From the NCBI GenBank assembly GCA_041484785.1, contig JBGPIH010000001.1, forward strand, positions 7,258 through 71,257: a stretch of 64,000 bases of DNA, in the 5' to 3' direction. The number at the start of each line of letters is the position of its first letter. Positions within the stretch are counted from its first letter, which is position 1. A program made the translations under genes and the position numbers. Below are positions 19,668 to 64,000 of this stretch, in pieces. The notes beneath the pieces were generated by a model. It was not told where the DNA came from and ran no database searches. It worked only from the letters and a program-made list of their open reading frames with translations. This DNA is from Candidatus Limnocylindria bacterium. Its GTDB lineage: Bacteria > Chloroflexota > Limnocylindria > Limnocylindrales > CSP1-4.

Positions 19668-19874
19668 GACGATCTCTCAGGCGACATTCAGCTGGCGTTA
19701 AGGTTCGTCGGCGAGATTGGGGCATACTCATTCCAGAGCTTGAGGTTCATTCATGCGGCTCCCGTCTCAACACCCGAGCCAGGCTCCGAGCCCCACCATG
19801 GCGTCGGACATGACCGAGATGCTCGGGATGAGCTCGATGCCCGAGATCACCAGCTGATGGAGGTCTGAGCCGTC

Positions 19875-20555
19875 ATGAGCGAGGCGACCCGTGTCCTCGT
19901 CATCGACGACGATCCGAAGATCCGGACGGTCGTCCGTCGCGGCCTTGCCTATGAGGGCTACCGCGTGGTCGAGGCGGCCTCGGGCGAGGAGGGCCTGGAG
20001 AAGGCCCGCGAGCATCTGCCTGACCTCGTGGTCCTCGACATCATGATGCCCGGCATCGACGGTCTCGAGGTGACCCGTCGGCTGCGCGCTGCCGGTGACG
20101 AGGTGGCGATCCTCATGCTGACGGCGCGCGACGAGGTCAAGGACCGGGTCGAAGGGCTGGAGAACGGTGCCGACGATTACCTCGTCAAACCGTTCAGCTT
20201 CGAGGAGCTCCTCGCCCGTGTTCACGCGCTGCTCCGTCGCCGGGCCGCTCCGTCAGGCGAGGTGCTGCGGTTTGCCGACCTCGCGCTCGATGTCGACGCA
20301 CGCGAGGCGAGCCGGGCAGGGCGAACGATCGACTTGACGACGACCGAGTTCAGCCTGCTGCTGCTGCTGCTGCGCCACCCGCGCAAGGTGCTGACCCGCG
20401 ACGTGATCATGGAGCACGTCTGGTCGTATGACTTCGAGGGCGAGTCGAACGTCCTCGAGGTCTACGTTCGGTACCTGCGCAACAAGCTCGAGGCCAGTGG
20501 CGAGCCCCGCCTCATCCACACGATCCGCGGCGCGGGCTACGTCCTCAAAGAGTGA
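19875..20555 (+). CDS. OmpR-family response regulator (TCS 1)
   Basis: REC domain ([11 protein letters not shown]...[14 protein letters not shown]) plus winged-helix C-terminus. Confidence 0.9.
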
Positions 20556-21961
20556 GGCCTGTTTCCCGACGACTTTCGATCCGGGCCCGGCTCGCATTCA
20601 TCTATACCGGGCTCCTCGCGGCGGCCCTCGTCGCATTCGGCTCGGGAATGTATCTCGTCCTGCGCGCGCAACTCGAATCCTCGTTCAACGCTGGTCTCCT
20701 GGCGAACGCCGAACATGCGGCAGGGGCATTTGCCCAGGACACCGACGCCAGCGGTCGCCTGCGCCCGACTGGGCGCCTGATCACGCAGTTTGCCTCAACC
20801 GGCGGACGGGTCGTTGTCCTCGACGCCGGTGGCACCGAGCTCGCTGACTCGGCCCCGGCCGGCAGTCCCGCGCTATCAATCGGCCCCGAGGACCTCGCGG
20901 CCGCGGATCGTCATGGCCAGGTCATCAGTGAGTTTGCCGCAGGCGGTGACGTGCTTCGCCTGACCGTCGAGCCCGTCAACCTCCCGGACGGCAGCCTAGT
21001 GGGATACGTGGCCTGGGCGGACTCCACCCGCTCACTCCGCGACCTCCTGACCACGGTGAGTGTCGCCCTCGTCTTCGGCGGCGCTGCGGTCATCGGACTG
21101 GCGCTCGTCGGCGGCCTGGTCCTGGCACGGCGAGCCCTGGCTCCGGTCTCAGACGTCACCGAGACCGCCCGAGCGATTTCCCTGTCGGGCGATTTCGCGG
21201 CGCGCGTGGAAGCAGGTCGACCGGGCGACGAGGTCGGCGAGCTGGCGGTCGCGTTCAACGAGATGCTCGGCGCGCTCGAACAGAACCACCAGGCTTTGCA
21301 GCGCTTCCTCGGCGATGCATCTCACCAGCTCCGCACTCCACTCACGACCATCCGCGCCAACCTCGACCTCGCGGCACGGTCGGACCTGCCCGTGGGGGAA
21401 CGGGAAGCGATCCTGTCCGATGCGCGTGACGAGGCCGAGCGGATGGGCAGGCTGATCGGCGATCTCCTGTCGCTCGCCCGGGCGGAGTCCGGCGCTCGAC
21501 TGGAATTCCGTCCCGTCGAACTGGACGCCCTGCTGGTCGAGTCCGTCCGTCGCCAGCGCCAGGCGGCGCAGCACGTCCGGATGAGCGTGGCCACCGTGGA
21601 GCCGGCGGTCGTTGATGGCGACCGGGACCGGCTGCGTGAGCTGTTCGGGATCCTCCTCGACAACGCCGCGCGTTATACACCGGACGGCGGGACCGTCGTC
21701 GCGGGGCTCGTGGTGCGGAATGGGCGCGCCATCACCAAGGTCGAGGACACGGGCATCGGCCTCGATGCCGCCGATCGTGATCGGCTCTTCGAGCGCCTCT
21801 ACAGGGGTACGCGCGCACGCGAGATGCGGCCGTCAGGGACCGGGCTCGGCCTCGCGATCGCAAGCTGGATCGTCGAGTCGCACGCGGGAACGATCGAGCT
21901 GGCCAACCGGCCCGAGGGAGGCACGACGGTGGAAGTCACCCTGCCCCTGCGCCAGCCATGA
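20552..21961 (+). CDS. Sensor histidine kinase (TCS 1)
   Basis: Two TM, HAMP, H-box SHQLRTPLT, HATPase_c with G boxes. GTGA overlap with the upstream response regulator. Confidence 0.85.
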
Positions 21962-26787: not shown

Positions 26788-27467
26788 GTGAGGAAGGTAT
26801 GTGGCTGGGCCTGCGTCGCAGGGTGCCACAAGGCCCGGAAGAAGGGCCGTTCGGCAGGTCCTCATTGCGGCTGGGGCCTCCTGCGTGCTGGTTGCACTCC
26901 ACGCTCGGCCCATGCCGAGGCGTGCGTAGAAGCGGGCAGTAGCTTCGGACGCCGGTGACGACGAAGTCGAGGCCGAGCAGCGCGGCGGCGAACCAGGCCC
27001 AGGCCACGAAGCCTCCGGTCGTGAGCCACAGATTGAGGGCGAAGCAGCGCAACTGCGTGCGGGACGTCGTGGCGAGGCCGCGGCGTCGACAGATGCCAGG
27101 AGAAAAGAGTCTACCTTCGCGGCTGGCGCTTGCGATCCCAACCGATGATGAGGCCGGCACCAGTTGGAACTGGTGCACCAAGTCTCAGGCGCCGCTCACG
27201 CTGGGCTCAGCCTTCCGCTTCACGCTCGGGTGATGGACATCAGGCGCGGGCTTCAGATCCCCGTCTCCAGCCTGTGCGGTGGAGCACGGGCGACCACCAC
27301 CGAGCGCGAGCTGGCCGCGACCGACGGCGTGCTGTGCGGCTACGTATACCCGGCGACCGAGACGACTCACGTCGACTACGACCCGGCCGAGACCGACGCG
27401 TGGGTGCTCGCCCGGGTGAATCGAGCGGGCCGGGTATCAGATCGGCGCCCCCTCGAGGCCGTGATCC

Positions 27468-29671: not shown

Positions 29672-29689
29672 GGCGCGGACCGTCGCCCG

Positions 29690-38289: not shown

Positions 38290-38967
38290 TCAGACGAGAG
38301 CCCGACCGCCTGCCTGGCTTCGGCGCAGACGCAGTGTCGTGGCAGCGATCACAAGGAGGCCGATTGCTACGCTCAGCCCGGCGAGGGTACCCGCGGCGAA
38401 CTCCCAGAACGCGGTCGGATAGAGCTGCACGATCCGCTGGGTGGTCGGGTCGAATTGCCAGCCGCCGGCCGGGAAGACGATCTCGTGGAATAGCGTGAAC
38501 AACGCATCGAAGGCGACAACGAGCCCGATCCCGACGGCCGAGAAGATGAGCACGAGCCCGGTCGCGCCCCGCCGGACCGCGCGGAGCGCATCCGGTCCGC
38601 TCATCCCCCGGGTCGTGATGATGACCGCGATCGCGCCCGCCAGCACAAGCCCGAAGAACCCATAGACAACGACACGGACGTCCTGCATGTGAGCCGCCTC
38701 GACCGGTCCGTAGAACGGCGGGCCTCCTGGTGTCGCGGCAAATGTGAACGAGCCTGGTCCAATGAGCAGCTCCTGGACAGACAGCTCAGAGGCTCGTTGG
38801 GCGACCTCGTGCGGCACGCCCAGGATGCCGGCTGAGCCCCCGATCTCGAGGCCGAGGTTCATCACTGGCGGAAGCAGCAGAATGACCGCGGCCGTGCCGA
38901 CGATGACGATTGCGGTGCCGACCCCGGCGATGGTACGCCAAGGTCGGCTGGAGTGGTTGGCAGCCAC
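38290..38967 (-). CDS. DUF1461-family integral membrane protein
   Basis: FTLFHEIVFPAGGWQFDPTTQRIVQLYP motif. Confidence 0.6.
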   Translation of the reverse strand: MAANHSSRPWRTIAGVGTAIVIVGTAAVILLLPPVMNLGLEIGGSAGILGVPHEVAQRASELSVQELLIGPGSFTFAATPGGPPFYGPVEAAHMQDVRVVVYGFFGLVLAGAIAVIITTRGMSGPDALRAVRRGATGLVLIFSAVGIGLVVAFDALFTLFHEIVFPAGGWQFDPTTQRIVQLYPTAFWEFAAGTLAGLSVAIGLLVIAATTLRLRRSQAGGRALV

Positions 38968-49614: not shown

Positions 49615-50391
49615 TCAGTCGGCGGGCTCGCCGCCCAGGAGATCCTCGAGCAATCCCGGCGGCGCCGGCCGGATCCGACCCTCGAGATCGAGGAAGGCGC
49701 CCCGAGCTCGGTCGGCCGCGACGAGCGACCCGTCCGCCCGGCGGACCTCATGGTGCCACGTGCCCGACACCCGGCGCAGCTCGATGAGTCGGCTCGTCAC
49801 CGCGAGCTCGTCGTGTTCGCGGGCCGGTGCTCCGAGGATGAGATGGTGGCCGACGACGAACGTGACGAAGCCCTCGCGTTCCATCCGTTGGCCTGGCCAG
49901 CCCGCCAGATCGGCGGCCCGGAAGACAGCATGCTCGAGCCACTGGAGGACCGCCTGCGGCCGGGCGCTGTCGTTCGGCCCAAGCTCGTGGCTGTGGACCG
50001 CCTGGCTGAAGCAGAACGTGCGGCCGGCGACGTCACGGTCGACCGGCGGCAGGCCGGCATCGAGCGGCGGGCCGCCGAACTGCCACAGCGCGGTGAGTTC
50101 GGCGGCCGGCCGGTGGTCGACCTCGATCGTGTAGGCGATGCGCTGCCACGAGGCGGTCTGCTCCAGGACGATCACGTCGACGTTCACGATGACGTCGGGC
50201 GGGACCGGCTGGCGGTACCCGATTTCGACCGACCGCAGCTCGCCGGCCGGCTGGCCCGCCGCATCATGCGCAGCCCGCATCAATGCGAGGTAGGCGGCGT
50301 TGTTGACGTGGCCGTAGCGGTCGCAATCATCCCAGCGTGTGCGGACGTTGACCCTCGCGCCCGACCGTTCGTCGTGCCCCCCGCCGGTCAT
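49615..50391 (-). CDS. Tandem hotdog-fold acyl-CoA thioesterase
   Basis: YGHVNNAAYLAL in the first half, second hotdog repeat in the C-terminal half. Confidence 0.7.
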   Translation of the reverse strand: MTGGGHDERSGARVNVRTRWDDCDRYGHVNNAAYLALMRAAHDAAGQPAGELRSVEIGYRQPVPPDVIVNVDVIVLEQTASWQRIAYTIEVDHRPAAELTALWQFGGPPLDAGLPPVDRDVAGRTFCFSQAVHSHELGPNDSARPQAVLQWLEHAVFRAADLAGWPGQRMEREGFVTFVVGHHLILGAPAREHDELAVTSRLIELRRVSGTWHHEVRRADGSLVAADRARGAFLDLEGRIRPAPPGLLEDLLGGEPAD

Positions 50392-52907
50392 CGCTGCCAG
50401 GCGATGAGCGGCAGGGCGAGTGGACCGGATTCAGCGGCCTCGCGCGACAGGATCCGCGCGGTGTAGGCATCCGATGGTGCGGTCAGCCTGCCGAGCGAGA
50501 TGCTGAAGTCGGCCCAGCCGTCGCGGTTTCGGCGGCCAGGACGCATCTCCAGGATCACGCTCGCGGCATCCTCGTCCCCGATCGGGGCTCGGTAGAACTG
50601 CACCGCGACGTCGGACGGCGCGAGCGCTCCGAGACCGACGGGGACGACGACGCGGGCGCCCGAGCCTCGTCCACGGACCGTCGGCGCGCCAAACGCGAGC
50701 GACGACCAGGCGGACCGGATCCGCTCCCGACGCGCGGCGACGAGGACCGCACCCCTGCCGCCCCGGGCGGCCAGCGCGGCCGCCCGCGCGGCGGCCGGCA
50801 GGTAGTGCTGCTCGACATACTCGGCGACCATCCGGTTGGAGCTGAAGCGCGGCGTCAGCATGGTCATCGAGGCGCGCAAGCGGTCCGTCCAGGCTCTTGG
50901 GATACCGTCGGGATCGCGGTCGTAGAAGGCCGGCAAGACGTCCTGCTCGATCAGCCGGTAGAGCTGCTCGGCCTCGGCCGCGTCGTCGGGATGCTCACCT
51001 GCCGGAGCGCCGAGCGCCCAGCCGACCGCCGGGTCGTAGGCCTCGGCCCACCAGCCATCCAGCTCGGATAGGTTGAGCCCGCCGTTCGCGAGCACCTTCA
51101 TGCCGCTCGTACCACTCGCTTCGAGCGGATAGCGTGGCGTGTTGAGCCAGACGTCAACGCCATGCACGAGGTGGGCCGCGTGCTCGAGGTCGTAGTCCTC
51201 GAGGAAGACGATCCGGTCGCGTACCGCCGAATCGCCGGCGAACCGGACGATCTCGGCGATGAGGCCCTTGCCAGTATCGTCACGCGGGTGGGCCTTGCCG
51301 GCAACGACGAGCTGGATCGGCCGTTCGGAGTCCCTGAGCAGCCGCCGCAACCGGTCGGGTTGGCTCAAGAGGAGGGTCGGGCGCTTGTACTCGGCGAAGC
51401 GTCGGGCGAAGCCGATGGTCAGGACGCCGGGGTCGAGCACTGACGCGGCCGCCGCGACGCACTCGGGCGGCTCACCGCGCTGGGCGAGGTGGTGTGCCAA
51501 TCGCTCGCGCGCCCAGCCGACGAGGCGCGCTCGCTCGCGGTTCCGAGCGCCCCACAGGGCCTCGTCCGGGACGTCCGCGAGCCGGGCCCAGTTGGCCGTG
51601 TCGGGTTGGTCCCAGCAGGCCTCGCCGTAGCACAGGTGCCAGAGCTCGCGCATCGCGTCCGAAACCCAGGTCGCGACGTGCACGCCGTTGGTCACCGAGC
51701 CGACCGGGACCTCGCGCTCGGGCCAGCGGGGAAAGAGGCCGGCAAAGAGCCGGCGGCTGACCGCGCCATGGAGCTGGCTCACACCATTCGCGTAGCCGGC
51801 GAAGCGAAGCGCCAAGATGGCCATCTCCAGCGGTGCCGACGGGTCACCGGGATGCGTCCGACCGAGGTCGAGCAGCTCCTCGGTGGACAGGCGAAGCTCG
51901 TCGGCGTAGGGGGCGAGGGAGCGCCGGCTGAGGTCGGGCTCGAAGGTGTCGAAGCCCGCGCCGACCGGCGTGTGGGTCGTGAACACGTTGCCGGCGGTCG
52001 TCGCCACGCGGGCGACCTCGAAGCTCGCGCGGTGCTCGACCATCCAGTCGCGTGCCCGCTCGAGGACCGCAAACGCAGCGTGGCCCTCGTTGAGATGGCA
52101 GACCGGCGGGCGGATCCCGAGCGCGGTCAGGGCCCGCCAGCCGCCGATGCCGAGTGCCATCTCCTGCTGGAGGCGGGTCTCCCGATCGCCGCCGTAAAGC
52201 TGCGCGGTGATGCCCCTGTCCGCCGGGCTGTTGACTGCCACATTTGCGTCGAGGAGGTAGAGGCTGACCCGGCCGACCTGCGCCCGCCAGACCGCGAGCG
52301 TCAGCGGGCGGCCGGGCAGCGGGACTTCGACCGTCAACGGGCGCCCGTCGTCCGTCAGCACCTGCGAGATCGGGAGGAGATCGAACCGGTTCGGCGGGTA
52401 GTACTCGCGCTGCCAACCCGAGGCGTCGAGCTGCTGGCGGAAATAGCCCTCGGCGTAGAGCAGGCTCACCCCGACGAGCGGCACACCGAGCGCACTTGCC
52501 GACTTCAAGTGGTCGCCGGACAGGACGCCCAGCCCGCCCGAGTAGAGCGGCAAGGCCTCGTCCAGACCGACCTCGGCGCTGAAGTAGGCGCCGAGCGGCT
52601 CCACGACTCGTCCATGCGTCCGCTCGAACCAGCCGCCATCGGCGCGGTAGGCGGTGCGCTCGGCCGCCAGCCGCTCGAGGGTCGATTGGAAGGCTGGATC
52701 GGCAGCGAGCTCCTCGAGCCGCTCCAGCGGAGCGAGCCGAAGGATCGTCCAGGGGTCGGCTCCGCCGGTCAGACGGCCATTGGGATCGATCGCCCGGAAG
52801 TGCGCGCGGATCTCGGGACGCCACGACCAGCGCAGGTCGAGCGCGAGTTCGCGCAGCAGGCTGAGTTGGGAGCCCCCCGTACCGGTAGCGCGGTTGGTCG
52901 CTTGCAC
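50388..52907 (-). CDS. glgP: Alpha-glucan (maltodextrin/glycogen) phosphorylase, GlgP-type with DUF3417 N-terminus
   Basis: YFSAEVGLDEALPLYSGGLGVLSGDHLKSASALGVPLVGVSLLY and the PLP-Lys region. Confidence 0.85.
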   Translation of the reverse strand: MQATNRATGTGGSQLSLLRELALDLRWSWRPEIRAHFRAIDPNGRLTGGADPWTILRLAPLERLEELAADPAFQSTLERLAAERTAYRADGGWFERTHGRVVEPLGAYFSAEVGLDEALPLYSGGLGVLSGDHLKSASALGVPLVGVSLLYAEGYFRQQLDASGWQREYYPPNRFDLLPISQVLTDDGRPLTVEVPLPGRPLTLAVWRAQVGRVSLYLLDANVAVNSPADRGITAQLYGGDRETRLQQEMALGIGGWRALTALGIRPPVCHLNEGHAAFAVLERARDWMVEHRASFEVARVATTAGNVFTTHTPVGAGFDTFEPDLSRRSLAPYADELRLSTEELLDLGRTHPGDPSAPLEMAILALRFAGYANGVSQLHGAVSRRLFAGLFPRWPEREVPVGSVTNGVHVATWVSDAMRELWHLCYGEACWDQPDTANWARLADVPDEALWGARNRERARLVGWARERLAHHLAQRGEPPECVAAAASVLDPGVLTIGFARRFAEYKRPTLLLSQPDRLRRLLRDSERPIQLVVAGKAHPRDDTGKGLIAEIVRFAGDSAVRDRIVFLEDYDLEHAAHLVHGVDVWLNTPRYPLEASGTSGMKVLANGGLNLSELDGWWAEAYDPAVGWALGAPAGEHPDDAAEAEQLYRLIEQDVLPAFYDRDPDGIPRAWTDRLRASMTMLTPRFSSNRMVAEYVEQHYLPAAARAAALAARGGRGAVLVAARRERIRSAWSSLAFGAPTVRGRGSGARVVVPVGLGALAPSDVAVQFYRAPIGDEDAASVILEMRPGRRNRDGWADFSISLGRLTAPSDAYTARILSREAAESGPLALPLIAWQR

Positions 52908-55122: not shown

Positions 55123-55331
55123 TGGGCGCCGTCCTCCTTCGACTCACGCTGCTTGCGCTCGGCATGGGCCTGATCGAGATCGGGCTGACCGACGCCCTCG
55201 GTAAGGGGTCGCTTGCCGGATGGGGGCTGGTCTTCCTGGCTGGGTTCCCGCTCGTCCTGGTTGGAACGGCCGGCGTCATTGGTCCGCTTTTTGGGATCCG
55301 GCGCGACAGAGGAGGCAGTGGTCATGACTAA
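55122..55331 (+). CDS. Small two-TM membrane protein, translationally coupled to cytochrome b
   Basis: ATG overlaps the qcrB stop (TGATG). Hydrophobic 69 aa. Confidence 0.4.
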   Translation: MGAVLLRLTLLALGMGLIEIGLTDALGKGSLAGWGLVFLAGFPLVLVGTAGVIGPLFGIRRDRGGSGHD

Positions 55332-55836
55332 GCGCTCCCTCGCCAGCCCACTGGCAGCAGCGCTCCTGCTTGCGATCCTCGCCCCAGCCGTCCTGGCCCA
55401 CGGCGTCGTGACCGTGACCGTTGACCCGATGACCGTGACGGCCGGCGAGGACGTGACGATCAGCGTGGCTGGCGTCGAACCCGACCAGGATCGCGTCATC
55501 GTCCTCATCGGCCAGGGGATCGTCGTCCCGTTTCCAACCGTGCGAACCGACGCTTCGGGCTCGTTCGTTACGACGCTGACGATCCCGACCCGGCTGCCGG
55601 GCGGGACCTACCGCTTCGAGGCGATTGGCGACGAAACGCTGACGGGCGACGTCGACGTGATGGCCGCCGCCGGCGGGATCGCGGCCCAGGCACCGGTCGA
55701 CCTGACGGTGCCCGAGTCGCGCACCCGTGGCGCGCCCGAGACGGGCGGGATCGCCGTCGTCGCGCTGCTAGCCGGGCTCATCGGCCTCGCCCTCGTCTGG
55801 CGCGCCGAGCGCTTCCGGGGTTCGGCCAAGGACTGA
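55324..55836 (+). CDS. Secreted protein with N-terminal His after signal cleavage and C-terminal PETGG + TM + basic tail
   Basis: GGAGG SD. Signal peptide ...AVLA|HGVV. C-terminus APETGGIAVVALLAGLIGLALVWRAERFRGSAKD resembles a sortase-type sorting signal. Confidence 0.55.
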   Translation: MTKRSLASPLAAALLLAILAPAVLAHGVVTVTVDPMTVTAGEDVTISVAGVEPDQDRVIVLIGQGIVVPFPTVRTDASGSFVTTLTIPTRLPGGTYRFEAIGDETLTGDVDVMAAAGGIAAQAPVDLTVPESRTRGAPETGGIAVVALLAGLIGLALVWRAERFRGSAKD

Positions 55837-55909
55837 CCGTTCGACGTTCGATCTCTCACGATCTCTCACATGCCTCTCCGCCGCCTCTCAGGCGCCATTC
55901 AGCCTAGCC

Positions 55910-57103
55910 GTGCATGGTCGAGCGATGAATACGACAGTTGCTCCCTCGCAGGGCGAACAGCCAGCCGGACCAGTCACCCTTGGGTCCGGCTGGCTGTGGC
56001 CCGCCGCCTTCGTGGCGATGTACGTCGCCCTGTTCTACGTGCCCGGCCACTCCCCGGCATCGGGCGGCAGCGACGACCTCGTCGCCACGATCGGTGCGCT
56101 CTACGTCGTCGGGCTGATCGTCGTGGGCGTGCGCCTCCTCCGGGGCACCATCCTCCGGGCCGGCGGCAGCCACCAGCCGATCGTGCTCCTCGGAAGAGGA
56201 CCAGATCCCCTGACGTCGGAAGCGATCCGGCCACGATGGCGCCTCACCGCCGTGGCCGCCGGTGTGATCGCGCCAGTGGCTGCCGCCCTTGCCGCCTGGC
56301 AGCTTGCGGCCGCCGCTGACCCAACCACGTACGCCCACGCGATCGCAAGCCTCGCGCTCAGCGTGAGCGCCGTCATTGCCGCGGGCGCGCTCATCCCCGC
56401 ACCAGGTTTCCCCGGATGGGCGCTGTTGCTCGGGATCGTAGACTCGACCGGAGCCCCGCTGGAACAGCGCGTCCGGCGTGCGGCCCGGATCGCACGAGCG
56501 GTCGGAGCCCCGATCCTGTTCGCGGCAGGCATAGCCGCCGCGCTGCTGGGCGACCCGATGCTCATGCTCCTCGGATTCGTCCTCGGCTTCCTGACTTGGA
56601 GCGGGGGCCAGGCGGCCGCCGCCCAGGACGCGACCGCTCGTTTTCTCGCCGCCCATACTGCGGGCGAGATCGCCAGACCGATTGCGAATGACGCTGCTCC
56701 CGATGAACTGATCGGCAACCTCATGGGCCGCCTGAGGACGGACAACACCATCGTCACTGTGGAGGCCGGCGGCGGTGTCGTCGGGGCGATTGGGCCGCGC
56801 CAGCTCGCGGCCCGTGACGCACTGAAGCGCGACGAGCGCTGCACGGAGGCCATGGTGCCGCTCGGTTCGCTGCGGCTCCTCGGCCCGGCGTCGCCTGCGG
56901 TCGACTTGCTCCCCGAGATCGCCCGGCACGGCTTCGCGCTCGTCACCGGCCCGGATGGGCTGGGCTACGTCGAGGCGTCGGATCTCGGGCGCCAGATTAG
57001 GATCTGGATCGCACTCGGCGACCGCGGCGTCGGCGGGCGTTCGGACCGGCATCGGGACGGTCGCGGCGCCAAGGCCGGGGCGGGCGGCACGATCGTCGAA
57101 TGA
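55910..57103 (+). CDS. Membrane protein with C-terminal CBS-like domain
   Basis: Multiple TM, then TEAMVPLGSLRLLGPASPAVDLLPEIARHGFALVTGPDGLGYVEASDLG. Confidence 0.55.
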   Translation: MHGRAMNTTVAPSQGEQPAGPVTLGSGWLWPAAFVAMYVALFYVPGHSPASGGSDDLVATIGALYVVGLIVVGVRLLRGTILRAGGSHQPIVLLGRGPDPLTSEAIRPRWRLTAVAAGVIAPVAAALAAWQLAAAADPTTYAHAIASLALSVSAVIAAGALIPAPGFPGWALLLGIVDSTGAPLEQRVRRAARIARAVGAPILFAAGIAAALLGDPMLMLLGFVLGFLTWSGGQAAAAQDATARFLAAHTAGEIARPIANDAAPDELIGNLMGRLRTDNTIVTVEAGGGVVGAIGPRQLAARDALKRDERCTEAMVPLGSLRLLGPASPAVDLLPEIARHGFALVTGPDGLGYVEASDLGRQIRIWIALGDRGVGGRSDRHRDGRGAKAGAGGTIVE

Positions 57104-57351
57104 ACGGCGGTGGCGGCCGCGGTGACGGCCAGCGAGCACCTTGCCAGCTCGCGTCATCGGCGTCTTCGCGGCCTTGTGGTCGATGCTGGCCGCCGGCTGG
57201 TTGTGTCGATCGCCACCCAAGGCGAACTGCGGACACCGGTGGTCGTCTCGCGGTGGGCTGTTTTTCGTCGCGGTCGTATGGCTGATTGGGCTCCTGATGC
57301 TTGTGCTGTTCGTGCCCCGCAGGGCGGACGAGTAGGACCCATCGCGTCCGA

Positions 57352-58071
57352 TTACAGCTCGGCGTAGCGGACGAGCTTGACTTCCGAATGCCGCCCGAGC
57401 GCGCGACGAAGGTAGTGACAGTAGCGGGCGTTGACGACGACCAGGATGCGCCGGCCCGTGTCCCGCCGAGCGAGTTCCACGACGCGCTCCGCCAGCGCCT
57501 CGCGGTGGGTGATTGCGCCATGCAACGTTGACCCACGGTGCATCGCCGGTGCACCCGACAGCCAGTCCATGAGGTGGTACAGCAACTCCGCCATCCAGTG
57601 GCGGGCTCCGCGGTCGACAGCGACAGGGCTTTTGGCACCCCGCTGAAGCGACGCGACCGCAGCGCGCAGGCGATCGAACAGCCACCTTCGCGGCCCTGCC
57701 GGCCCCGATGTCGTGGCATCGACCGCGGTCAACCCGTCAGCCCGCGCGTCATCCCCGATCGGCACGACGACGATGTCGGTCTGCTGGGCGAGGGGCAGGA
57801 GGGCGTCGCGGTACTCCGGCGGCAGCCCACCGAAGTCCCGAAGCCGCCATTGCTCGAGGGTCATGTCGAGGCACAGCAGGTCCGGGCCGATCGTGCGGAC
57901 GAAGTCGACGAGGGCGACGAGGTCGTAGGGGGTCGGTTCGGGCCGGAATTCGGCCAGCGTTCCAACCACCGCAACCGGTGTGAGGCCCTTGGTCGTGACG
58001 TCCATCCGGTCGTCGATGGGTCCGTCGAGCGGTTGATTGCCAGTCGCGCGGCGGTCGGTGTCGAACGTCAT
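57352..58071 (-). CDS. Hypothetical protein
   Basis: 239-aa ORF of balanced composition, 4-nt overlap with the downstream LuxR-family gene. Confidence 0.45.
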   Translation of the reverse strand: MTFDTDRRATGNQPLDGPIDDRMDVTTKGLTPVAVVGTLAEFRPEPTPYDLVALVDFVRTIGPDLLCLDMTLEQWRLRDFGGLPPEYRDALLPLAQQTDIVVVPIGDDARADGLTAVDATTSGPAGPRRWLFDRLRAAVASLQRGAKSPVAVDRGARHWMAELLYHLMDWLSGAPAMHRGSTLHGAITHREALAERVVELARRDTGRRILVVVNARYCHYLRRALGRHSEVKLVRYAEL

Positions 58072-58730
58072 TCCCGGCCCCCTTCATCTGGGCTCTGGCG
58101 GACCGCCCAGAGCACCGCCTCTGTTCGCGACCGCACGCCGAGCTTGGCATAGATGCTGCGCAGATGCGCCTCGACGGTCCGCACGCTCAGGAACAGCGCC
58201 TGGGCCATGTCCTTGTTCGTTTGACCCCGGACGAGGAGATGGATCACGTCATGCTCACGCTCGGAGAGTTCGTTGGTGGCCCGGCGGTCGAGGCCGACCG
58301 GTCGGGCGAGCTCGGCGAGTGCCCGCGCCGCGATCGAGGGCGGCAGGGCAATCTCGCCACGCCCGACCGCCACCAGGGCGCGGACAAGATCGCTGGTCGG
58401 AGAATCCGCTGGGAGGCAGCCGATGACGCCGGCCTTGAGCAGGGGAACGACGGTTGGCAGGTCGATGTGGTCGAGCACGGCAAGCACTCCCAGACCGTTC
58501 GTAGCGCTCACCAGGGCCGCAGCAGCGTCGGGATCCATCGTGGCGTCGTCCAAGAGAACCGCCACGACGCCGACCGTCGGCAGCAGGCTTGCCACCTCGG
58601 CCGCCGCGCCAGCCGTGCCGGTCACCGTGAGTTCCCGTTGCTGTGCGAGCAGGGCCTCCCACGCCGCCCGCCGAAGAGCTCGGGGGGCGACGACGATGAC
58701 CGGAGTGACGGCTTCACGAGGGTGTGGCAC
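58068..58730 (-). CDS. LuxR/NarL-family response regulator-like transcription factor
   Basis: C-terminal LuxR HTH (LSEREHDVIHLLVRGQTNKDMAQALFLSVRTVEAHLRSIYAKLGV); N-terminal receiver-like region. Confidence 0.7.
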   Translation of the reverse strand: MPHPREAVTPVIVVAPRALRRAAWEALLAQQRELTVTGTAGAAAEVASLLPTVGVVAVLLDDATMDPDAAAALVSATNGLGVLAVLDHIDLPTVVPLLKAGVIGCLPADSPTSDLVRALVAVGRGEIALPPSIAARALAELARPVGLDRRATNELSEREHDVIHLLVRGQTNKDMAQALFLSVRTVEAHLRSIYAKLGVRSRTEAVLWAVRQSPDEGGRE

Positions 58731-58787
58731 TGGACGGAGCGTACCGGACCCGGACAGGCCGGGTCCGGTACAGCTTCGATCCGCCGA

Positions 58788-60953
58788 TCAACTTTCGCGT
58801 GCGACGGAAGCACGCTCAAGGGCGAGATGCGGCAGTCGCCGGTCCAGCCAACCCGGGATCCACCAGTTCGCCCGGCCGAGGATGGCCATGGCCGCGGGCA
58901 GCAGGATGACCCGCACAATCGTCGCGTCGACCAGGATCGCGGTTGCGAGGCCTACGCCGATCATCTTGATGTCGACCATCTGCACGGGCACGAACGACAG
59001 GAAGACTGCGACCATCACGAGCGCGGCCGAAGTGATGACCCGGGCCGTCGATCCGACCCCGCTGACGATCGCGGCCTTTGTGTCGGCTCCGGCGGCGTAC
59101 GCCTCCCGGATGCGCGACAGCAGGAAGACCTCGTAGTCCATCGACAACCCGAAGAGGATGGCGAACACGAACAACGGCACAATCGACGCGATCGGGAGCG
59201 CTTCGTCGAGCCCGACGAGCTTCACTCCCCAGCCCCACTGGAAGACGGCCACCAGGACACCGAAGGCGGCTCCCAGCGAGATGACGTTGAGGATGGCCGC
59301 CGTCAAGGCGACGACGATCGATCGGAACGCGAGGAGCAGCAGCAGGAACGACACGGCGATCACGGCGCCGACGACGAGCGGTAGCCGGCTGGCAGAGCGG
59401 GCGTCCAGGTCGACATAGAGCGCGTTGACCCCGCCCACGTGCACCTGAGCGCCGGTCCCCGACGTCGCGGCGGGCAGCACCCGGTCGGTCAGGCGATTCA
59501 GGAGCTGCACGGTCGTCTGGGCCTGCGGCGCGCTTCGAGGCACGATGGCGATCACGGCGGTGTCGCGGGCTGCGTTGATCTGCGCGGGCGCCACGGCAGC
59601 GACGTCCGGATCGGCAATGAGACTCGCTGCGATAGGCTCGAGCACCCGGGTGTCACCGGGCGGCAGGTCGACGACCAGGAGGATCGGCCCGTTGATGCCC
59701 GGGCCGAATCCCTGGGCGAGCAGGTCGTATGCCTGCCGTTGGGTGGTTGCGGGTGAGGCGCTGCCCTGGTCGGGCATGCCGGAGCGCAGATCGAGGATCG
59801 GCGCGGCCAGGATCAGGAGGATTCCGAGGCTGGCGAGGAGGTAGGGCCATGGGCGGGCGACCACCCGGCTGGTCCAGCCGGTCCAGCCACGGGTCACGGA
59901 AGCGTCCGGCCTGGGGGCCGACGCGGTCCGACCGAGCCGCGGGATATGCCATCGCTCGATGCGCTGTCCGAGCAGGCCAAGGAGTGCAGGCAGGAGCGTG
60001 ACCGCTGCGAGGATCGTGACGGCCACGGCGATCACAGCGGATGTGGCCATCCAGCTCAGGAAGGGGAACTCCGCGAGCCACAGCCCGAGGATCGAGATGA
60101 CCACCGTGGAGCCGGCAAACAGGACGGCTCGACCTGACGTCGCGAGCGCGATCCCGACCGATTCGACCACCGGGTGGCCGCTTCGCAGCTGCTCGCGGAA
60201 GCGGTTGCTGATGAACAGAGCGTAGTCGATCCCCGCGCCCAGGCCGAGCATCGCCGCGACCGTCGGAGCGGCCGTCGAGACCTCGACCTTTGCCGCGAGG
60301 AGGAGGACGAGGGAGATGCCACTGGTCAGGGCGATGATCGCCGTCAGGATCGGCAACCCGGCCGCCATGACCGAGCCGAAGGCGATGAGCAGGATCACGG
60401 CGGCCACGAGCAGGCCGACTCCCTCGCCGGCCGACCCGGCCAACGGGGACGCATAGTCAAGAAGCTCGCCTCCGAGCTCCACCTGGAGCCCGGCCTGCCG
60501 GCCGGTGGCGGCCGCCGACTGGAGGCGATCGACCGCAGGCTGCGCGAGCTTCCCAGCTTCTCTGTCGTACTGGACGGCTGCGTAAGCGATCGTCGCATCG
60601 GCCGAAACGGCACCAGGCGTGGTCAGGGGATCGGTCACACCGATCACGTCCGGCTGGCGCCCAATGGCGGCCATCGTTGCCGTCACTCCGGCGGCCGCCG
60701 CGGGATCGCGGATCGTACCTCCGGGGGTTCGGAACACGACCGTGACCTGCGTGCCGGCGACCTGGGGGAACTTCTGCTCGAGGAGATCGATGGCCGCCTG
60801 CGAATGGGCTCCGGGCAGGACGAATCGATCGTTGAAGGTTCCGCCGAACCTGCCGGCCAACGCGACCGCGCCGACGGTCGCGACAAGCCAGATGAGGATA
60901 ACGAGCCGGGCGTGGCGAGCGGCCGCCTGCCCCAGCCGGTTGAGTGGTGACAT
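58788..60953 (-). CDS. MMPL-family (RND superfamily) transporter
   Basis: 12 TM with two periplasmic loops. GGAG SD before the ATG at 60953. Confidence 0.85.
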   Translation of the reverse strand: MSPLNRLGQAAARHARLVILIWLVATVGAVALAGRFGGTFNDRFVLPGAHSQAAIDLLEQKFPQVAGTQVTVVFRTPGGTIRDPAAAAGVTATMAAIGRQPDVIGVTDPLTTPGAVSADATIAYAAVQYDREAGKLAQPAVDRLQSAAATGRQAGLQVELGGELLDYASPLAGSAGEGVGLLVAAVILLIAFGSVMAAGLPILTAIIALTSGISLVLLLAAKVEVSTAAPTVAAMLGLGAGIDYALFISNRFREQLRSGHPVVESVGIALATSGRAVLFAGSTVVISILGLWLAEFPFLSWMATSAVIAVAVTILAAVTLLPALLGLLGQRIERWHIPRLGRTASAPRPDASVTRGWTGWTSRVVARPWPYLLASLGILLILAAPILDLRSGMPDQGSASPATTQRQAYDLLAQGFGPGINGPILLVVDLPPGDTRVLEPIAASLIADPDVAAVAPAQINAARDTAVIAIVPRSAPQAQTTVQLLNRLTDRVLPAATSGTGAQVHVGGVNALYVDLDARSASRLPLVVGAVIAVSFLLLLLAFRSIVVALTAAILNVISLGAAFGVLVAVFQWGWGVKLVGLDEALPIASIVPLFVFAILFGLSMDYEVFLLSRIREAYAAGADTKAAIVSGVGSTARVITSAALVMVAVFLSFVPVQMVDIKMIGVGLATAILVDATIVRVILLPAAMAILGRANWWIPGWLDRRLPHLALERASVARES

Positions 60954-61109
60954 CTTGATGCTCCTTGGAGTTCGACCTGGCCGGCCAGGCGGACGGCCGC
61001 TCGTCAACATCGTCGGAGTTGAAGGTCGGGGCGGGCTACGGCAGAACCGCGAGAAGCTTGATTGGTGAAATCACCGAATCGATCGGCAGGGTGAGCCGCC
61101 GATCGGACG

Positions 61110-61892
61110 TCAGGCGGGCGCTCCTCGATCATGGCTATGGCCGGCCGCGTCGATTGAACCGCCCGCGGGAGGGGTCGGAAACCGAACGGTATCGATCCGA
61201 CCGCGGCTGGCGAATGACCGCAGCTGGTAGGCCGCCAGCGCGCCCGCGACGATCAGGAATGTCGCCGCTGCCAGGCCGAGCGACAGGTTGAGGCCCAAAC
61301 CGAGGTGATGGGCGACCATCCCAGACACGCTCGCGCCCAGGACCGCGTCGACCGTTCCAACGACGGCCGGCGTCGTCACGAACACGTGATGGTGGATCGG
61401 ATGGCCGGTGGGAGATGCGCCGAAGGTCCGCAGGACGCCGGCCCCATCGTCATGCCACCCGGAGACGAGGTACGGCTCAACGTCCGGGGCAAGCTCCAGG
61501 TAGGCATGGCGAAGCCGGTTCATGCCCTGCACCCATAGGACGTCCTCGCCGTTCACCGCCACGAGGCGGACGAACGTGGCCAGGCCGATGAACAGGATGA
61601 CTGGCAGGATGACGAGCGCGGCCACCAGGAACTCGGGCCCGAAGGCGGTCGCCTGGGCGACGAGGGCCAAGGCGACGATCGATCCCGAGAGCGTCGCCAG
61701 GAACATGCTCGATCGGCTGAACGACTCGTTCCAGGTCATCGAGCGTGTTGCCAGCAGGCTCCAATGCTCGGTCGTCAGGATCTGCAGGCGTAGAGCGGCG
61801 GGCAGCGGGGTACCTTGCTGCTGCGGCGACGTCTCGGCCGGTAATGCCAGCGGCTCGGCTGCGAATCCCGGGATCGATCGTTCGAAGGACAT
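61110..61892 (-). CDS. Hypothetical membrane protein
   Basis: Several TM helices; His cluster HPIHHH. Confidence 0.45.
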   Translation of the reverse strand: MSFERSIPGFAAEPLALPAETSPQQQGTPLPAALRLQILTTEHWSLLATRSMTWNESFSRSSMFLATLSGSIVALALVAQATAFGPEFLVAALVILPVILFIGLATFVRLVAVNGEDVLWVQGMNRLRHAYLELAPDVEPYLVSGWHDDGAGVLRTFGASPTGHPIHHHVFVTTPAVVGTVDAVLGASVSGMVAHHLGLGLNLSLGLAAATFLIVAGALAAYQLRSFASRGRIDTVRFPTPPAGGSIDAAGHSHDRGAPA

Positions 61893-62367
61893 CGCCGTCT
61901 CCTTCCACCGGGCGGGGTGGCCGGGACCCGATCGGCGGCCTACCCCTTCATCGTGACGCCAGCGCGAGGTAGGCGCCCGCCATCAAGATAAGGCCCACCG
62001 CGATGCCGAGCGCGTAGTTCTGGACGCGTCCCGTCTGGATCCGTCGCTGGCGGCGTGGCGTCGCGTCGATCGTGAGGGATCCGATCCGTTGAGCAAGGCG
62101 TCGACGATCGTCCGGCGAGAGGCACGGCCAACAGAAGGACGACGGCCGAGGAGTCGGTCACGAGCGTGTTTGCGCTCCAACTGCGGCGGTCTCGCTACGA
62201 CAGCCCCATAGTTAATCGTCGCCGGCGCGTTCAGCTGCGACTCGGTGGCGGTACGTCCGGGCGAGAAAGGGGGCCAAGCAGAGGTTCTCAGCTGGCTTTC
62301 AGGTTCGGCTCACCGCCCGTTCAGCACCTGCGGCCACGCTGAGCGCCACCCTCAGGAAGGATCTGGT

Positions 62368-62760
62368 GTGAAGGCGTTCGGTTTCCTGCTCGGCGTCGCG
62401 TTCGTCATCATCGGTTTCGTGTTCGTCGCTGCGATCACCGACTGGTCTGGCGGCACTGGTGGCGCTCAGGGCTCGATCGCGATCGTGCTCGAGGACTTCC
62501 GCTTCACCCCGAACCGCATCGACGCGAAGGTCGGCGTGCCGGTCACTGTCACGCTGACGAATCGCGGGACTGAGCGCCACGATCTCAACTTCGGATCGCT
62601 CCATATGCCTGGCCTCGGCGGGGTCGAGTCGATCTTGGAGCCGGGCGAGACGCGGACGATCACGCTCAGCTTCGATCAGGCCGGAACGCACACGTTCACC
62701 TGCTCCTTGCCCGGGCACGCCGCCGCTGGCATGACCGGCGCTGCATTCGTGACTCCATGA
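62368..62760 (+). CDS. Cupredoxin (blue copper protein), membrane-anchored
   Basis: GGAAGG SD then GTG start. N-terminal TM. Type-1 Cu ligands H (ERHDLNF) and C-x4-H-x4-M (HTFTCSLPGHAAAGM). Confidence 0.75.
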   Translation: MKAFGFLLGVAFVIIGFVFVAAITDWSGGTGGAQGSIAIVLEDFRFTPNRIDAKVGVPVTVTLTNRGTERHDLNFGSLHMPGLGGVESILEPGETRTITLSFDQAGTHTFTCSLPGHAAAGMTGAAFVTP

Positions 62761-63098
62761 CTGTCCGGGCATCTGGCGATCGCGGCGCCGCCATGCGACA
62801 CGCTCAACGCGCGAGCGGCCAGCTCGCGGCGCTGGCCCCAATGATCGCCGCGAGCCAGCCGTTTCCGGAGGTTGCGCAACAACTGCTGGCGGCCCGAGGC
62901 TCGCTCGACTCGCTGCTGGTGCGACTCGTGGAGCTCGAGCTCCACGACTGCCTGCCGAGCCGTGAGGCCCGGGCGGAGGTCGATGGACTGCTCCGGACAG
63001 CACTCGGGCGGAATGCGTCCCATCGGGGGTCGCTCGCCATTCGCAGCCGCGCGGCGGCAGCAACCCGCAATGCACTTCAAGGAAGGACGACACGATGA
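62757..63098 (+). CDS. CsoR/RcnR/FrmR-family metal-sensing repressor
   Basis: ATGA overlap with the cupredoxin. Helical; RASGQLAAL..MIAAS....VAQQLLAARGSLDSLLVRLVELELHDC parallels the CsoR RIEGQ...C...H...C scaffold, with the H-x3-C pair retained. Confidence 0.65.
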   Translation: MTVRASGDRGAAMRHAQRASGQLAALAPMIAASQPFPEVAQQLLAARGSLDSLLVRLVELELHDCLPSREARAEVDGLLRTALGRNASHRGSLAIRSRAAAATRNALQGRTTR

Positions 63099-63610
63099 CC
63101 GGCCAACACACCCACGACCACCCCGAGACCGTGCAGACGCGGGCTGCCCGTCGCGCCGCGGCGCGCGCCGGGCATACCGGGCCTTCCGGGCGCCGTCTCC
63201 CGCGGCCAGTACGGCTCGCCCTCTTCGGGGTCATCGCCGTGGTCGTCGGAGTAGGCGCCATTGGCCTAGTCGTCAGCCGTCTCCAGGGGCCCGCCGCCAC
63301 AGACACGGCGGCAATCCAGGTCCACGCGAGCATGAACGGGTTCGATCCATCGGCGTTGACGGTGAAGGCCGGGCAGCCGGTCAAGATCGAGCTGAGCAGC
63401 ATGGATAGCTCGATGCACAGCGACGGCGGTGGCTCGCACCAATTCGCGATCGACGCGCTCAGCATCAACTGGAAGGTCGGCCCGCTGAGCACCAAAGTCT
63501 TCGAGTTCACGGCGCCCATCACGCCGGGCACCTACAGCTGGTACTGCGACATCTGCTGCGGCGGCAAGGCGAACCCATCCATGCAGGGCAAGCTGACGGT
63601 GACCGCGTAA
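63095..63610 (+). CDS. Membrane-anchored cupredoxin-like protein (CuA-like C-x-I-C-C-G-x5-M site)
   Basis: ATGA overlap with the csoR-like gene. TM anchor. HQFAID ... YSWYCDICCGGKANPSMQG. Confidence 0.65.
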   Translation: MTGQHTHDHPETVQTRAARRAAARAGHTGPSGRRLPRPVRLALFGVIAVVVGVGAIGLVVSRLQGPAATDTAAIQVHASMNGFDPSALTVKAGQPVKIELSSMDSSMHSDGGGSHQFAIDALSINWKVGPLSTKVFEFTAPITPGTYSWYCDICCGGKANPSMQGKLTVTA

Positions 63611-64000
63611 TGCGGGCGCCACTCGACACATTCGTCGCCCGTCCTCGGCTGCTCCTGCTGCTCATCGGCGCGACCGTCATTACGGCATCTGCGGCGGCGA
63701 TCCTTTTCGTTTCGCCGCAGATGGCGGACCACCAGGCGATCTCCGACCTCAGCGTGCCGGCGATCATCACGGCCGGTTTCCTCGACGGCTTCAACCCCTG
63801 CGCCTTCGGTGTCCTGATCCTGTTCGCGACGTTTGCTCTCGGGCTGGCGACGCGCCAGTCGCTGACGACCAGCGGAACGGGTGGCGTGGCTGATACCCGC
63901 GCCGCAAGCCGGACCGTCCTCGGACTCGGCTCTTTCTTCGTCGTCGGCGTCCTGGTCACCTACTTCCTGCTCGGGCTCGGCCTGCTGACCGCGGTTGCCT
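63610..64000 (+). CDS. DsbD/CcdA-family transmembrane protein, partial (runs off window end)
   Basis: ATG shares a base with the preceding TAA. ITAGFLDGFNPCAFGVLILF matches the DsbD-family Cys motif. Absent from the ORF track because it has no stop in the window. Confidence 0.6.
   Translation, partial: MRAPLDTFVARPRLLLLLIGATVITASAAAILFVSPQMADHQAISDLSVPAIITAGFLDGFNPCAFGVLILFATFALGLATRQSLTTSGTGGVADTRAASRTVLGLGSFFVVGVLVTYFLLGLGLLTAVA

Follow-up and report, generated by a model that had tools for sequence, protein, structure and literature searches.

The characterised sensors of the CsoR family, which respond to Cu(I), Ni/Co, formaldehyde or persulfide, all have a cysteine at position X of the W-X-Y-Z signature, and several large clusters of the corresponding Pfam family, PF02583, have been noted as uncharacterised (PMC8643695, PMC11672702). 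Among the copper-handling cupredoxins, CupA and CopI have been reviewed, and CupA is said to occur in few streptococcal species only (PMC7558416). A copper-induced lgt2/lit2 operon has been described in Listeria and Enterococcus (PMC8275575), and a preprint states that copper stress induces DsbD-type reductant pathways (bioRxiv 10.1101/2020.08.17.255257). In this study we analysed a stretch of 64,000 nucleotides (hereafter the window) from Candidatus Limnocylindria bacterium of the Chloroflexota (GenBank assembly GCA_041484785.1, contig JBGPIH010000001.1, positions 7,258 to 71,257 of the forward strand). At its 3' end lie four genes, here called A, B, C and D, which encode a type-1 cupredoxin, a CsoR-family protein, a CuA-like cupredoxin and a putative DsbD/CcdA-superfamily membrane protein. 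All four proteins belong to known superfamilies; the new variants are a CsoR clade with the signature x-F-E-C, an apparently CuA-derived cupredoxin with a CxxCC motif that always accompanies a DsbD-like protein, and a regulon defined by direct repeats. Our literature search found no published description of a cupredoxin and DsbD-like pair, nor any published account of copper handling in Chloroflexota, Limnocylindria in particular.

The four open reading frames (ORFs) occupy the forward strand from 62368 to the end of the window and are joined by overlaps of the types ATGA, ATGA and TAATG (Table 1). For the synteny, promoter and orthologue comparisons we used related contigs designated by L numbers (L001, L006, L055 and so on). 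One of them, the Joint Genome Institute (JGI) metagenome contig L001, is 99.95% identical to positions 55284-64000 of the window and runs 8.5 kb further downstream; the full-length D (L001 8327-9190) and the genes behind it were read from this contig. In the related loci the A/B spacing was -4 nt in 18 cases out of 18, the B/C spacing was mostly -4 nt and the C/D spacing was -1 or -4 nt in all. Since the junctions recur in about 25 related genomes, the overlaps are not a chance trait of this genome, and our data show A-B-C-D to be a single translationally coupled transcription unit. An earlier note, made from the letters of the window, had described such a linkage of four genes, and the junctions proved to be exact and conserved. 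The four-gene operon that it placed at 62245-64000 therefore stands, but its left boundary does not: position 62245 is merely an upstream in-frame GTG, the interval 62245-62367 holds the promoter element, and the conserved start of A is the GTG at 62368 (MK...), behind the Shine-Dalgarno sequence AGGAAGGA at 62354-62361.

A genome scan for B retrieved 26 loci, all from Chloroflexota and many of them named Candidatus Limnocylindria or Limnocylindrales. In nearly all of these loci tblastn placed A-B-C-D in front of the same further genes, so the conservation in other genomes that had been proposed as a check was found in the related loci, downstream copper genes included. Some loci (L016, L017) lack gene A and start with B instead. 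L082, L109 and L130 have the pair C-D and lack both A and B, and a paralogous C-D pair is present in L035. Even in lineages where the identity of the D-like protein falls to 44-45%, its gene again adjoins that of a cupredoxin, and no CsoR-like gene is present; the distant C cupredoxins share the pattern SMSGF ... H-[ST]-DGGG-x-H ... YCDICCGG-x-NP-x-M. Because C-D recurs without A and B and in distant lineages, the pair is the ancient functional core of the operon, whose members are always adjacent, and B and A are lineage-specific additions. The layout of a repressor sandwiched between its targets, which had first drawn attention to the locus, is thus not its defining trait: B heads the operon where A is absent, and C-D pairs without B occur in L150 and L151 as well as in the three contigs named above.

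C consists of an arginine-rich cytoplasmic N-terminus, one transmembrane helix and an outward CuA-like cupredoxin domain (47.7 bits against PF13473). Its orthologues share the invariant residues H108, H115, C151-x2-C154-C155 and M163. The best NCBIfam and PDB-sequence matches were the CuA domains of nitrous-oxide reductases (NosZ), and in the NosZ CuA profile alignment H115, C151, C155 and M163 fell on CuA ligands, with A/E159 at the second histidine. This second CuA histidine is absent in all C orthologues, and the extra C154, which creates the CxxCC motif, and the extra H108 are invariant. The profile alignment and this invariance bear out the earlier description of a CuA-like CDICCGG...M arrangement without the second histidine. 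In the AlphaFold2 (AF2) model of C the domain reached a predicted local distance difference test (pLDDT) score of ~85-96, and Foldseek matched the model to 4HCF, the ba3 and NosZ CuA domains, FtrB, AcoP and CupA. On the ba3 and NosZ CuA domains it superposed with E ~1e-7 and a root-mean-square deviation of ~2.3 Å. The CuA fold is thus present in the model, and the full CuA ligand set (His, Cys-x3-Cys, His, Met) is not. Taken together, the alignments show C as a predicted CuA-derived, outward-facing cupredoxin in which one histidine, both bridging cysteines and the methionine have been kept and a third cysteine and a second histidine have been added. The JGI label for proteins of the C type is 'cytochrome c oxidase subunit 2'. 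A distant C orthologue with the motif CGICYGG was found in L152 (1-345), upstream of a DsbD_TM-positive D-like gene.

An exhaustive HMMER search yielded 1776 relatives of D. The Pfam families that they matched were PF02683 and PF11139. Among 40 diverse relatives, 28 matched SfLAP and 16 matched DsbD_TM, and the residues P63-C64 and P204-C205 were invariant; a third cysteine of D, C201 (in C201-x3-C205), is not invariant across the wider family. The protein P0255, which matches the D-like P0122 at E = 1.5e-33, scored 34.7 bits against PF02683 (cutoff 27.1), and one relative of D is fused to an N-terminal thioredoxin domain. In the AF2 model of D (pLDDT 84) the helices break at 61-62 and 202, that is, at both Pro-Cys motifs, on which the two halves of the protein also align weakly (E = 0.03). 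From the hidden Markov model (HMM) matches of the relatives, the invariant Pro-Cys motifs, the helix breaks and the alignment of the halves, D therefore appears to be a divergent member of the DsbD/CcdA superfamily, an assignment based on transitive homology and motifs. The DsbD/CcdA-type protein that the earlier note had put behind C is accordingly recognised through its relatives and motifs, and not through a direct HMM match.

The middle ORF, B, belongs to the CsoR/RcnR family, as had been suggested for it: it scored 34.8 bits against PF02583 (DUF156/CsoR; cutoff 22.8) over residues 12-76 and profile positions 5-70 of 78. Its matches to the NCBIfam models FrmR, RcnR and RicR were weak and far under their cutoffs. 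There are at least 260 homologues, those listed being of about 113 amino acids (aa), and every named source was a Chloroflexota metagenome-assembled genome; the clade is apparently Limnocylindria-specific, having been seen only in Chloroflexota (Limnocylindria and relatives). B was aligned to M. tuberculosis and B. subtilis CsoR and to E. coli RcnR and FrmR, and this alignment gave the signature x-F36-E61-C65 with C65 as the single cysteine of the protein. Within the clade F36 is invariant and C65 nearly so, and the position of the second-shell tyrosine (Tyr35) holds a proline. Two of the three Cu(I) ligands are missing, since every aligned member has Phe at X and Glu at Y; a cysteine at X together with His or Cys at Y and Z was not found. 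Judged by these residues, Cu(I) bound at the classical trigonal site is excluded as the inducer of B, and the description of B as a metal-sensing CsoR was not supported, given that the characterised classes keep the cysteine at X and B has one only at Z. The motifs R-x3-R-x2-G-Q in alpha1 and QQ..A.RG in alpha2 are conserved, which makes DNA binding by B plausible. An 85-aa gene call for B in L001 was rejected, because the conserved R9, A11 and H15 lie upstream of its start and most calls are of 113 aa. At the other end of the gene, the Shine-Dalgarno sequence of C (GGAAGGA, 63080-63086) falls in the 3' codons of B (63074-63098). We infer that these codons account for the conserved C-terminal E-(E/G)-R-T of B, which is probably maintained at the nucleotide rather than the protein level.

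A scored 50.6 bits against PF13473 and 29.4 bits against PF00127 (cutoff 21.2). The classic ligand arrangement C-x4-H-x4-M reported for it earlier is real, the type-1 ligands H71/C112/H117/M122 being invariant in 21 orthologues; H79-M80 is conserved as well. Its N-terminal hydrophobic helix follows MK, and the outward topology was judged by inspection; several orthologues have a lipobox in place of this anchor, those of L009 and L012 with the lipobox-like sequences A-N-G-C and L-A-A-G-C. By these features A is a predicted extracytoplasmic blue copper protein, membrane-anchored and in some orthologues probably a lipoprotein. Against the CopI models (NF051440/NF047895) it stayed below the curated cutoff, with 56.3 bits compared with 280.

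The alignment of the promoters revealed an element of four direct repeats, with the consensus cTTCT(A/C)AGC-tCTCAGG-cCTCAC-g(C/T)TCAGC, which is kept in 20 of the 20 loci carrying gene A and is the sole conserved promoter element near the operon start. In L021, L027 and L028 an ATG lies 6-7 nt past the CANNNT hexamer that follows the repeats; the transcripts would be leaderless there, and the repeats therefore would lie upstream of the transcription start, as promoter DNA and not as RNA. A reading of the repeats as an RNA element was rejected on account of these leaderless orthologues and because Rfam at E <= 1 gave nothing in 61800-64000. The same interval contained no sigma-70 consensus and no terminator. 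The CsoR-type GC-rich palindromic operator that had been expected upstream of 62368 was absent both from the 20 promoters and from 61893-62400: a repeat search of the latter interval gave nothing operator-like and no GC-tract palindrome, and the 20 aligned promoters, compared with shuffled controls, had no conserved inverted repeat between promoter and start codon. Only the L012 promoter has a significant inverted repeat (8-bp arms, P = 0.01).

The element is not confined to this operon. When the window was scanned with a four-unit position weight matrix, the site at 62284 scored 35.8 and five window sites lay between 24 and 36, compared with a shuffled maximum of 8.6; the looser pattern (C/T)T(A/C)A(G/C) with an 11-bp period and 3-4 units occurs at least 10 times in the 64 kb. 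The three-unit pattern was found at about 45 sites in 439 kb of related DNA, where base composition would by our own estimate predict about 0.05. All sites checked are upstream of a gene and co-oriented with it, and these genes are mostly copper-related (copA seven times, HMA-like five times, a multicopper oxidase, a YHS protein and a second CopA). Wherever A or B is present, one of them stands behind the element. A further copy lies directly after the stop of D, and in most genomes a small Met-rich ORF and then gene E follow it. Another copy precedes copA; because the same element precedes each, we regard the whole island as three co-regulated units. The element looks like the mark of a regulon particular to this lineage, one with a wider reach than copper efflux. 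A metagenome scan with TCTCAG-N6-CTCAC-N6-CTCAG returned 120 matches, mostly by chance and about 16 of them in this gene context, and is no unbiased census of the regulon. A likeness of the repeat to the mycobacterial MprA box was considered and set aside, the sequence being unconfirmed by our literature search.

Repeats of 7 bp with 4-bp spacers that abut the -10 and replace the -35 are the architecture of PhoB/OmpR-type activator sites, and the tandem 11-bp repeats at 62284-62327 were found to abut the -10 and to replace the -35 in just this manner. A candidate binder is encoded in the window itself, by an OmpR-type regulator at 19875-20555 (Response_reg and Trans_reg_C) and a histidine kinase at 20552-21961 (HAMP/HisKA/HATPase), behind a copy of the element. 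The best NCBIfam match of the kinase is TIGR01386 (heavy-metal sensor kinase), and the regulator scored 238.5 bits against TIGR01387 (heavy-metal regulator), second to NblR with 249 bits; both heavy-metal matches are below the curated cutoffs. A 90%-identical regulator is found in L055 downstream of a repeat-driven multicopper oxidase, in one operon with it. Because of the activator-type geometry, the element before the regulator gene and the L055 operon, a CopRS/CusRS-like system is the most likely binder of the repeats. The element at 62284-62327 therefore looks like a candidate OmpR/PhoB-type response-regulator site, with the operon under the putative control of a two-component regulator. 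Two OmpR-type two-component systems in fact stand in tandem at 19875-23759 (regulator-kinase-regulator-kinase), and only the first of them is behind the element and heavy-metal-like. In L140 a repeat-driven MMPL gene adjoins an orthologue of the kinase.

The operon is the first of the three units of an island of about 9 kb. The second unit comprises the small Met-rich ORF, a CupA-like cupredoxin, Lgt and a His-rich protein; the third comprises CopA, another CupA-like cupredoxin and a TRASH protein, with a CopI-like lipoprotein after it (Table 1). The copper theme that the earlier note had proposed for the locus is upheld by these downstream genes (CopA, CupA-like, TRASH/YHS and CopI-like), but the metal sensing it assigned to B is not supported, B having lost the X and Y ligands.

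Table 1. Features of the operon, its promoter, the copper island and the related element sites. Positions are those of the window unless a contig is named.
Feature	Position	Strand	Description
Gene A	62368..62760	+	130 aa, GTG start, type-1 blue copper protein (predicted)
Gene B	62757..63098	+	113 aa, CsoR/RcnR-family protein
Gene C	63095..63610	+	171 aa, transmembrane-anchored CuA-like cupredoxin
Gene D	63610..64000	+	first 130 of 287 codons, gene cut by the window end; putative DsbD/CcdA-superfamily membrane protein
A/B junction	62757-62760	+	ccATGAct, A stop overlaps B start
B/C junction	63095-63098	+	cgATGAcc, B stop overlaps C start
C/D junction	63608-63612	+	gcgTAATGcg, C stop overlaps D start
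Direct-repeat element	62284..62327	+	four repeats, exact 11-bp period, occupies -35 region
Repeat cores	62287; 62298; 62309; 62320	+	CTCAG; TTCAG; CTCAC; TTCAG
-10-like hexamer	62335..62340	+	CACGCT (CANNNT), 10 nt downstream of last repeat; C.A...T columns conserved
Shine-Dalgarno of gene A	62354..62361	+	AGGAAGGA; g.agg block kept in promoter alignment
Candidate regulator locus	19676..21961	+	element ~19676-19705, OmpR-type regulator 19875-20555, histidine kinase 20552-21961
Element sites in window	19676, 27184, 35119, 53097, 55862, 62284	+	
Element sites in window	33972, 53012, 32597, 38230	-	
Element site outside window	L001 10996		
Gene E	after D (L001)		CupA-like cupredoxin, Cys ... CxM(xM)
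Gene F	L001 9860-10684		Lgt
Gene G	L001 10681-11130		149-aa membrane protein, (HGG)n/His-rich tail; copA promoter repeats in 3' end
Gene H	after G		CopA without HMA domains
Gene I	after H		second CupA-like cupredoxin, CxMxM
TRASH/YHS proteins	after I		part of island
Gene M	3' part of island		CopI-like lipoprotein; 72.7 bits compared with CopI cutoff of 280
Small HMA-like proteins	27230-27475; L006 685-918; L010 2631-2864; L018 3624-3875; L024 3480-3713		
Window metal-island genes	28376-30622; 32740-33900(-); 39721-42252(-)		

The account that we favour, to which we give about an even chance, is that of a copper-island operon under a CopRS/CusRS-like system, with D reducing C and B acting as a secondary regulator. 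External copper would be sensed by such a two-component system, likely the pair at 19875-21961, whose phosphorylated regulator would bind the repeats as two head-to-tail dimers and activate all three units. D would pass reducing equivalents across the membrane by thiol-disulfide exchange via C64/C205, and these would keep the CxxCC loop of C reduced; in this state C might take up Cu(I), or reduce Cu(II), on the outside of the membrane. According to the positive-inside rule, the cupredoxin domains of A, C and M are outside and those of E and I are cytoplasmic, as for CupA. A might be a one-electron partner or a second copper buffer, A and M could buffer or oxidise copper, and CopA together with the cytoplasmic CupA-like chaperones would remove cytoplasmic Cu(I). 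The dedicated Lgt may lipidate the lipoprotein cupredoxins, for which the copper-induced lgt2/lit2 operon is a precedent (PMC8275575). B, for its part, would have a secondary regulatory role in the cytoplasm, probably as a repressor that is produced together with its operon and acts by feedback; its signal would not be Cu(I) at the canonical site, and the simplest guess is that the lone C65 responds to a thiol or redox signal.

Several observations weigh against this account. Neither the full-length D nor its 130-aa fragment matched any Pfam or NCBIfam model at E <= 0.1, a profile search of PDB sequences with D gave no match, and Foldseek found nothing in the PDB below E = 0.2. No gene for a thioredoxin-fold protein, the usual substrate of DsbD/CcdA, is present in the island, the adjoining gene always encoding the CxxCC cupredoxin, and D could instead be a metal transporter, being a DsbD/LysE-clan protein with three membrane cysteines. 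The L152 orthologue of C retains CxxC and has lost the CuA-equivalent second cysteine, a hint that the functional pair may be CxxC and not C-x3-C. On the regulatory side, the 19875-21961 system lies 40 kb from the operon and is beside the island in few contigs only, B is itself encoded behind the element, so that autoregulation fits B equally well, and some repeat-driven genes are less obviously connected with copper (in two genomes a GlgP-like phosphorylase with a thioesterase; also a cytochrome-b cluster and the genes of an M23/LysM peptidase and an Lgt-domain protein).

The role of B is where the first alternative enters, a relaxed form of the model in the earlier note. B might be the repressor of the copper regulon, acting at the operon promoter and either released by copper through a non-canonical site (e.g., C65, H15, E61, M29) or itself reading the four CTNAG repeats. 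Its score above the PF02583 cutoff and its conserved R-x3-R-x2-G-Q and QQ..A.RG motifs fit such a role, as does its position behind the element in every locus, directly so in L016 and L017; moreover, the repeats are the sole conserved DNA near the promoter of B, each CTNAG core is a short palindrome, and CsoR-family proteins are known to work beside two-component systems (PMC11672702). Yet Phe at X and Glu at Y in all aligned members, the one cysteine and the loss of the second-shell Tyr35 are hard to reconcile with the characterised classes, which all have Cys at X (PMC8643695, PMC11672702), and a D2-symmetric tetramer would be expected on a dyad, of which the search for a GC-tract palindrome gave no sign, whereas the element has four directional repeats at -35 in the geometry of an activator site. 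Repeat-driven C-D operons also exist on contigs without B, and the repeat-driven operon of L055 includes the response regulator itself. We therefore consider it unlikely that B is the repressor of this regulon.

The function of the C-D pair admits of two further readings. In one of them, the pair is a thiol-relay metal transporter, in which the CxxCC of C takes Cu(I), Hg(II) or Ag(I) outside and hands it to C64/C201/C205 of D for translocation, as MerP does to MerT. D has three conserved intramembrane cysteines, a CxxxC among them, compared with two in canonical CcdA; its relatives match SfLAP more often than DsbD_TM (28 vs 16 of 40), and SfLAP and DsbD_TM both belong to the LysE transporter clan. 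The lack of a thioredoxin-fold partner in the island points in the same direction, and so do two distant C-D pairs, one of which (L150) adjoins a pyridine-nucleotide disulfide oxidoreductase of MerA-like architecture with a dimerisation domain, a YHS protein and a TRASH regulator, the other (L151) an HMA protein. However, copper import from a copper-induced resistance island would be counter-intuitive, two invariant Pro-Cys motifs, one per half, are a hallmark of DsbD/CcdA, some relatives of D have fused thioredoxin or GILT-like domains, and C201 is not invariant in the wider family; a transport function of the pair thus strikes us as rather improbable. In the other reading, C would serve respiration as a CuA subunit (cytochrome oxidase subunit II or NosZ type), and D would be its CcdA-type assembly factor. 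The JGI name of C would agree with this, its best sequence and fold matches include the NosZ and ba3 CuA domains, and CcdA/TlpA-type reductants do serve CuA maturation. Nevertheless, the second CuA histidine is missing from all C orthologues, there is no oxidase subunit I or NosZ catalytic domain nearby, C has a single N-terminal transmembrane helix and reached only E = 0.11 and 12 bits against NCBIfam CoxB, and the neighbours are uniformly copper-resistance genes, which makes a respiratory role highly improbable. To return to the copper-island account, a bolder version of it would have C-D as an undescribed trans-membrane thiol relay (or a MerP/MerT-like hand-off) combined with a B that has switched to a new signal, such as one-Cys redox, under a copper two-component system; this combination we put forward as a doubtful possibility.

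If the relay existed, a CcdA-type protein would act directly on a CuA-derived copper site with three cysteines, and not on a thioredoxin-fold protein; bacteria would then have, outside the cytoplasm, a Cu(II) reductase or a Cu(I) trap that draws its power from within. More generally, the C-D pairing suggests a coupling of cytoplasmic reducing power, or of thiol-based transport, to an extracytoplasmic copper site, and the pairing of a CxxCC cupredoxin with a DsbD-like protein reaches beyond Limnocylindria. The x-F-E-C clade indicates that the 'Cys at X' inducer rule is not valid for the whole CsoR family, and it cautions against labelling every PF02583 protein a metal sensor. Limnocylindria are known here from metagenome-assembled genomes only, and for them the island represents a testable parts list with a candidate regulon motif.

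Some further features of the surroundings were recorded. Between D and E most related genomes (including L006, L008, L009, L011, L014 and L016) encode a conserved membrane peptide of ~65 aa (MPDLL...LLAGGAMTMTGMSAMAG...); directly past the window end, at L001 9190-9323, it is shortened to ~21 codons and has no gene call or annotation in L001. The genes that diverge from the operon, at 58788-61892(-), encode a transporter of the MMPL family and a 260-aa membrane protein without annotation, and we found no repeat site for this window copy of MMPL. The window as a whole is a broad metal island: Nramp and a CDF cation-efflux protein are encoded there, as are a small multicopper oxidase and a second P1B ATPase, which has an HMA domain. 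Extra lipoprotein-modification genes lie amid the metal genes, namely an Lgt-domain gene at 35606-36805 (399 aa), Lit at 38290-38967(-) and the Lgt of L001 9860-10684.

The genes at the window's element sites include the regulator/kinase pair and an HMA-like gene accompanied by ICMT and Nramp. Others encode a multicopper oxidase, a GlgP-like protein with a thioesterase, a 392-aa membrane protein, an Lgt-domain protein, an M23/LysM peptidase and a 199-aa protein that goes with cytochrome b. The GlgP-like gene is a repeat-driven DUF3417/alpha-glucan-phosphorylase-like gene at 50388-52907(-), followed by a 4HBT thioesterase at 49615-50391(-); the phosphorylase is repeat-driven also in L012 (3470-5983, -), and a thioesterase-like gene in L011 (6543-7364, -). 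The small HMA-like proteins behind the element (77-83 aa; Table 1) have by eye an HMA/CopZ-fold look, with GLGCGG (in the window SSLCGG) instead of GMTCxxC. They retain at most one cysteine of the metal-binding pair, and the window copy has no Pfam match.

Compared with the systems described so far, the locus combines familiar parts in altered form. The core of B (~90 residues) aligns helix for helix with the CsoR/RcnR/FrmR/CstR family (M. tuberculosis CsoR, E. coli RcnR); it is 24% identical to E. coli RcnR, with the QQ..A.RG and R..GQ motifs in common, and its co-transcription with metal-handling genes is the usual setting of csoR. Unlike the members of that family, which have x-C-H-C, H-C-H-H, P-C-H-x or x-C-x-C, B has x-F-E-C, a single cysteine and an Arg-rich tail of ~30 aa, and its operon promoter yielded no GC-tract palindromic operator in our search. 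That promoter resembles PhoB-type promoters in its 7-bp direct repeats and 4-bp spacers at 62284-62327, the proximal box ending 10 bp before the -10. As in CopRS/CusRS regulons, the genes concerned include copA, a multicopper oxidase, cupredoxins and the two-component system itself, but here a CsoR-family gene lies inside the regulon and the link between regulator and site is an inferred one; the repeat (T)CTCA(G/C) also presumably differs from the published CusR and CopR boxes.

The cupredoxin fold of C resembles that of an uncharacterised B. anthracis Cupredoxin_1 protein (PDB 4HCF; target-normalised TM-score of the model 0.91). The H-x35-C-x3-C ... M spacing of C aligns with the ligands of the CuA of cytochrome oxidase subunit II and NosZ, from which it differs by A or E in place of the second histidine, by the extra cysteine (CxxCC), by the extra invariant histidine in the H-S-D-G-G-G-x-H loop, and by being a stand-alone protein with a one-helix membrane anchor, always paired with a DsbD-like gene and not with an oxidase. 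From S. pneumoniae CupA it is set apart by the lack of the CxMxM motif. D is multi-pass with one Pro-Cys per half, like DsbD/CcdA/ScsB (including the copper-linked Scs and DsbDEG), and its relatives pass PF02683 and are in some cases fused to thioredoxin-like domains; its third cysteine, its extra N-terminal helix, the lack of a direct HMM or structure match and a presumptive neighbouring partner that is a cupredoxin, not a thioredoxin-fold protein, are unlike that group. The two Lgt paralogues and the lipoprotein intramolecular transacylase amid the metal genes recall the lgt2/lit2 operon of Listeria and Enterococcus (PMC8275575). The likeness to R. gelatinosus CopI concerns A and M, plastocyanin-like proteins with weak matches to the CopI models, and E and I, membrane-anchored cupredoxins with Cys ... 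CxM(xM) beside an HMA-less CopA, resemble the CupA/CopA of S. pneumoniae, with the difference that the CupA-like proteins here are found in Chloroflexota.

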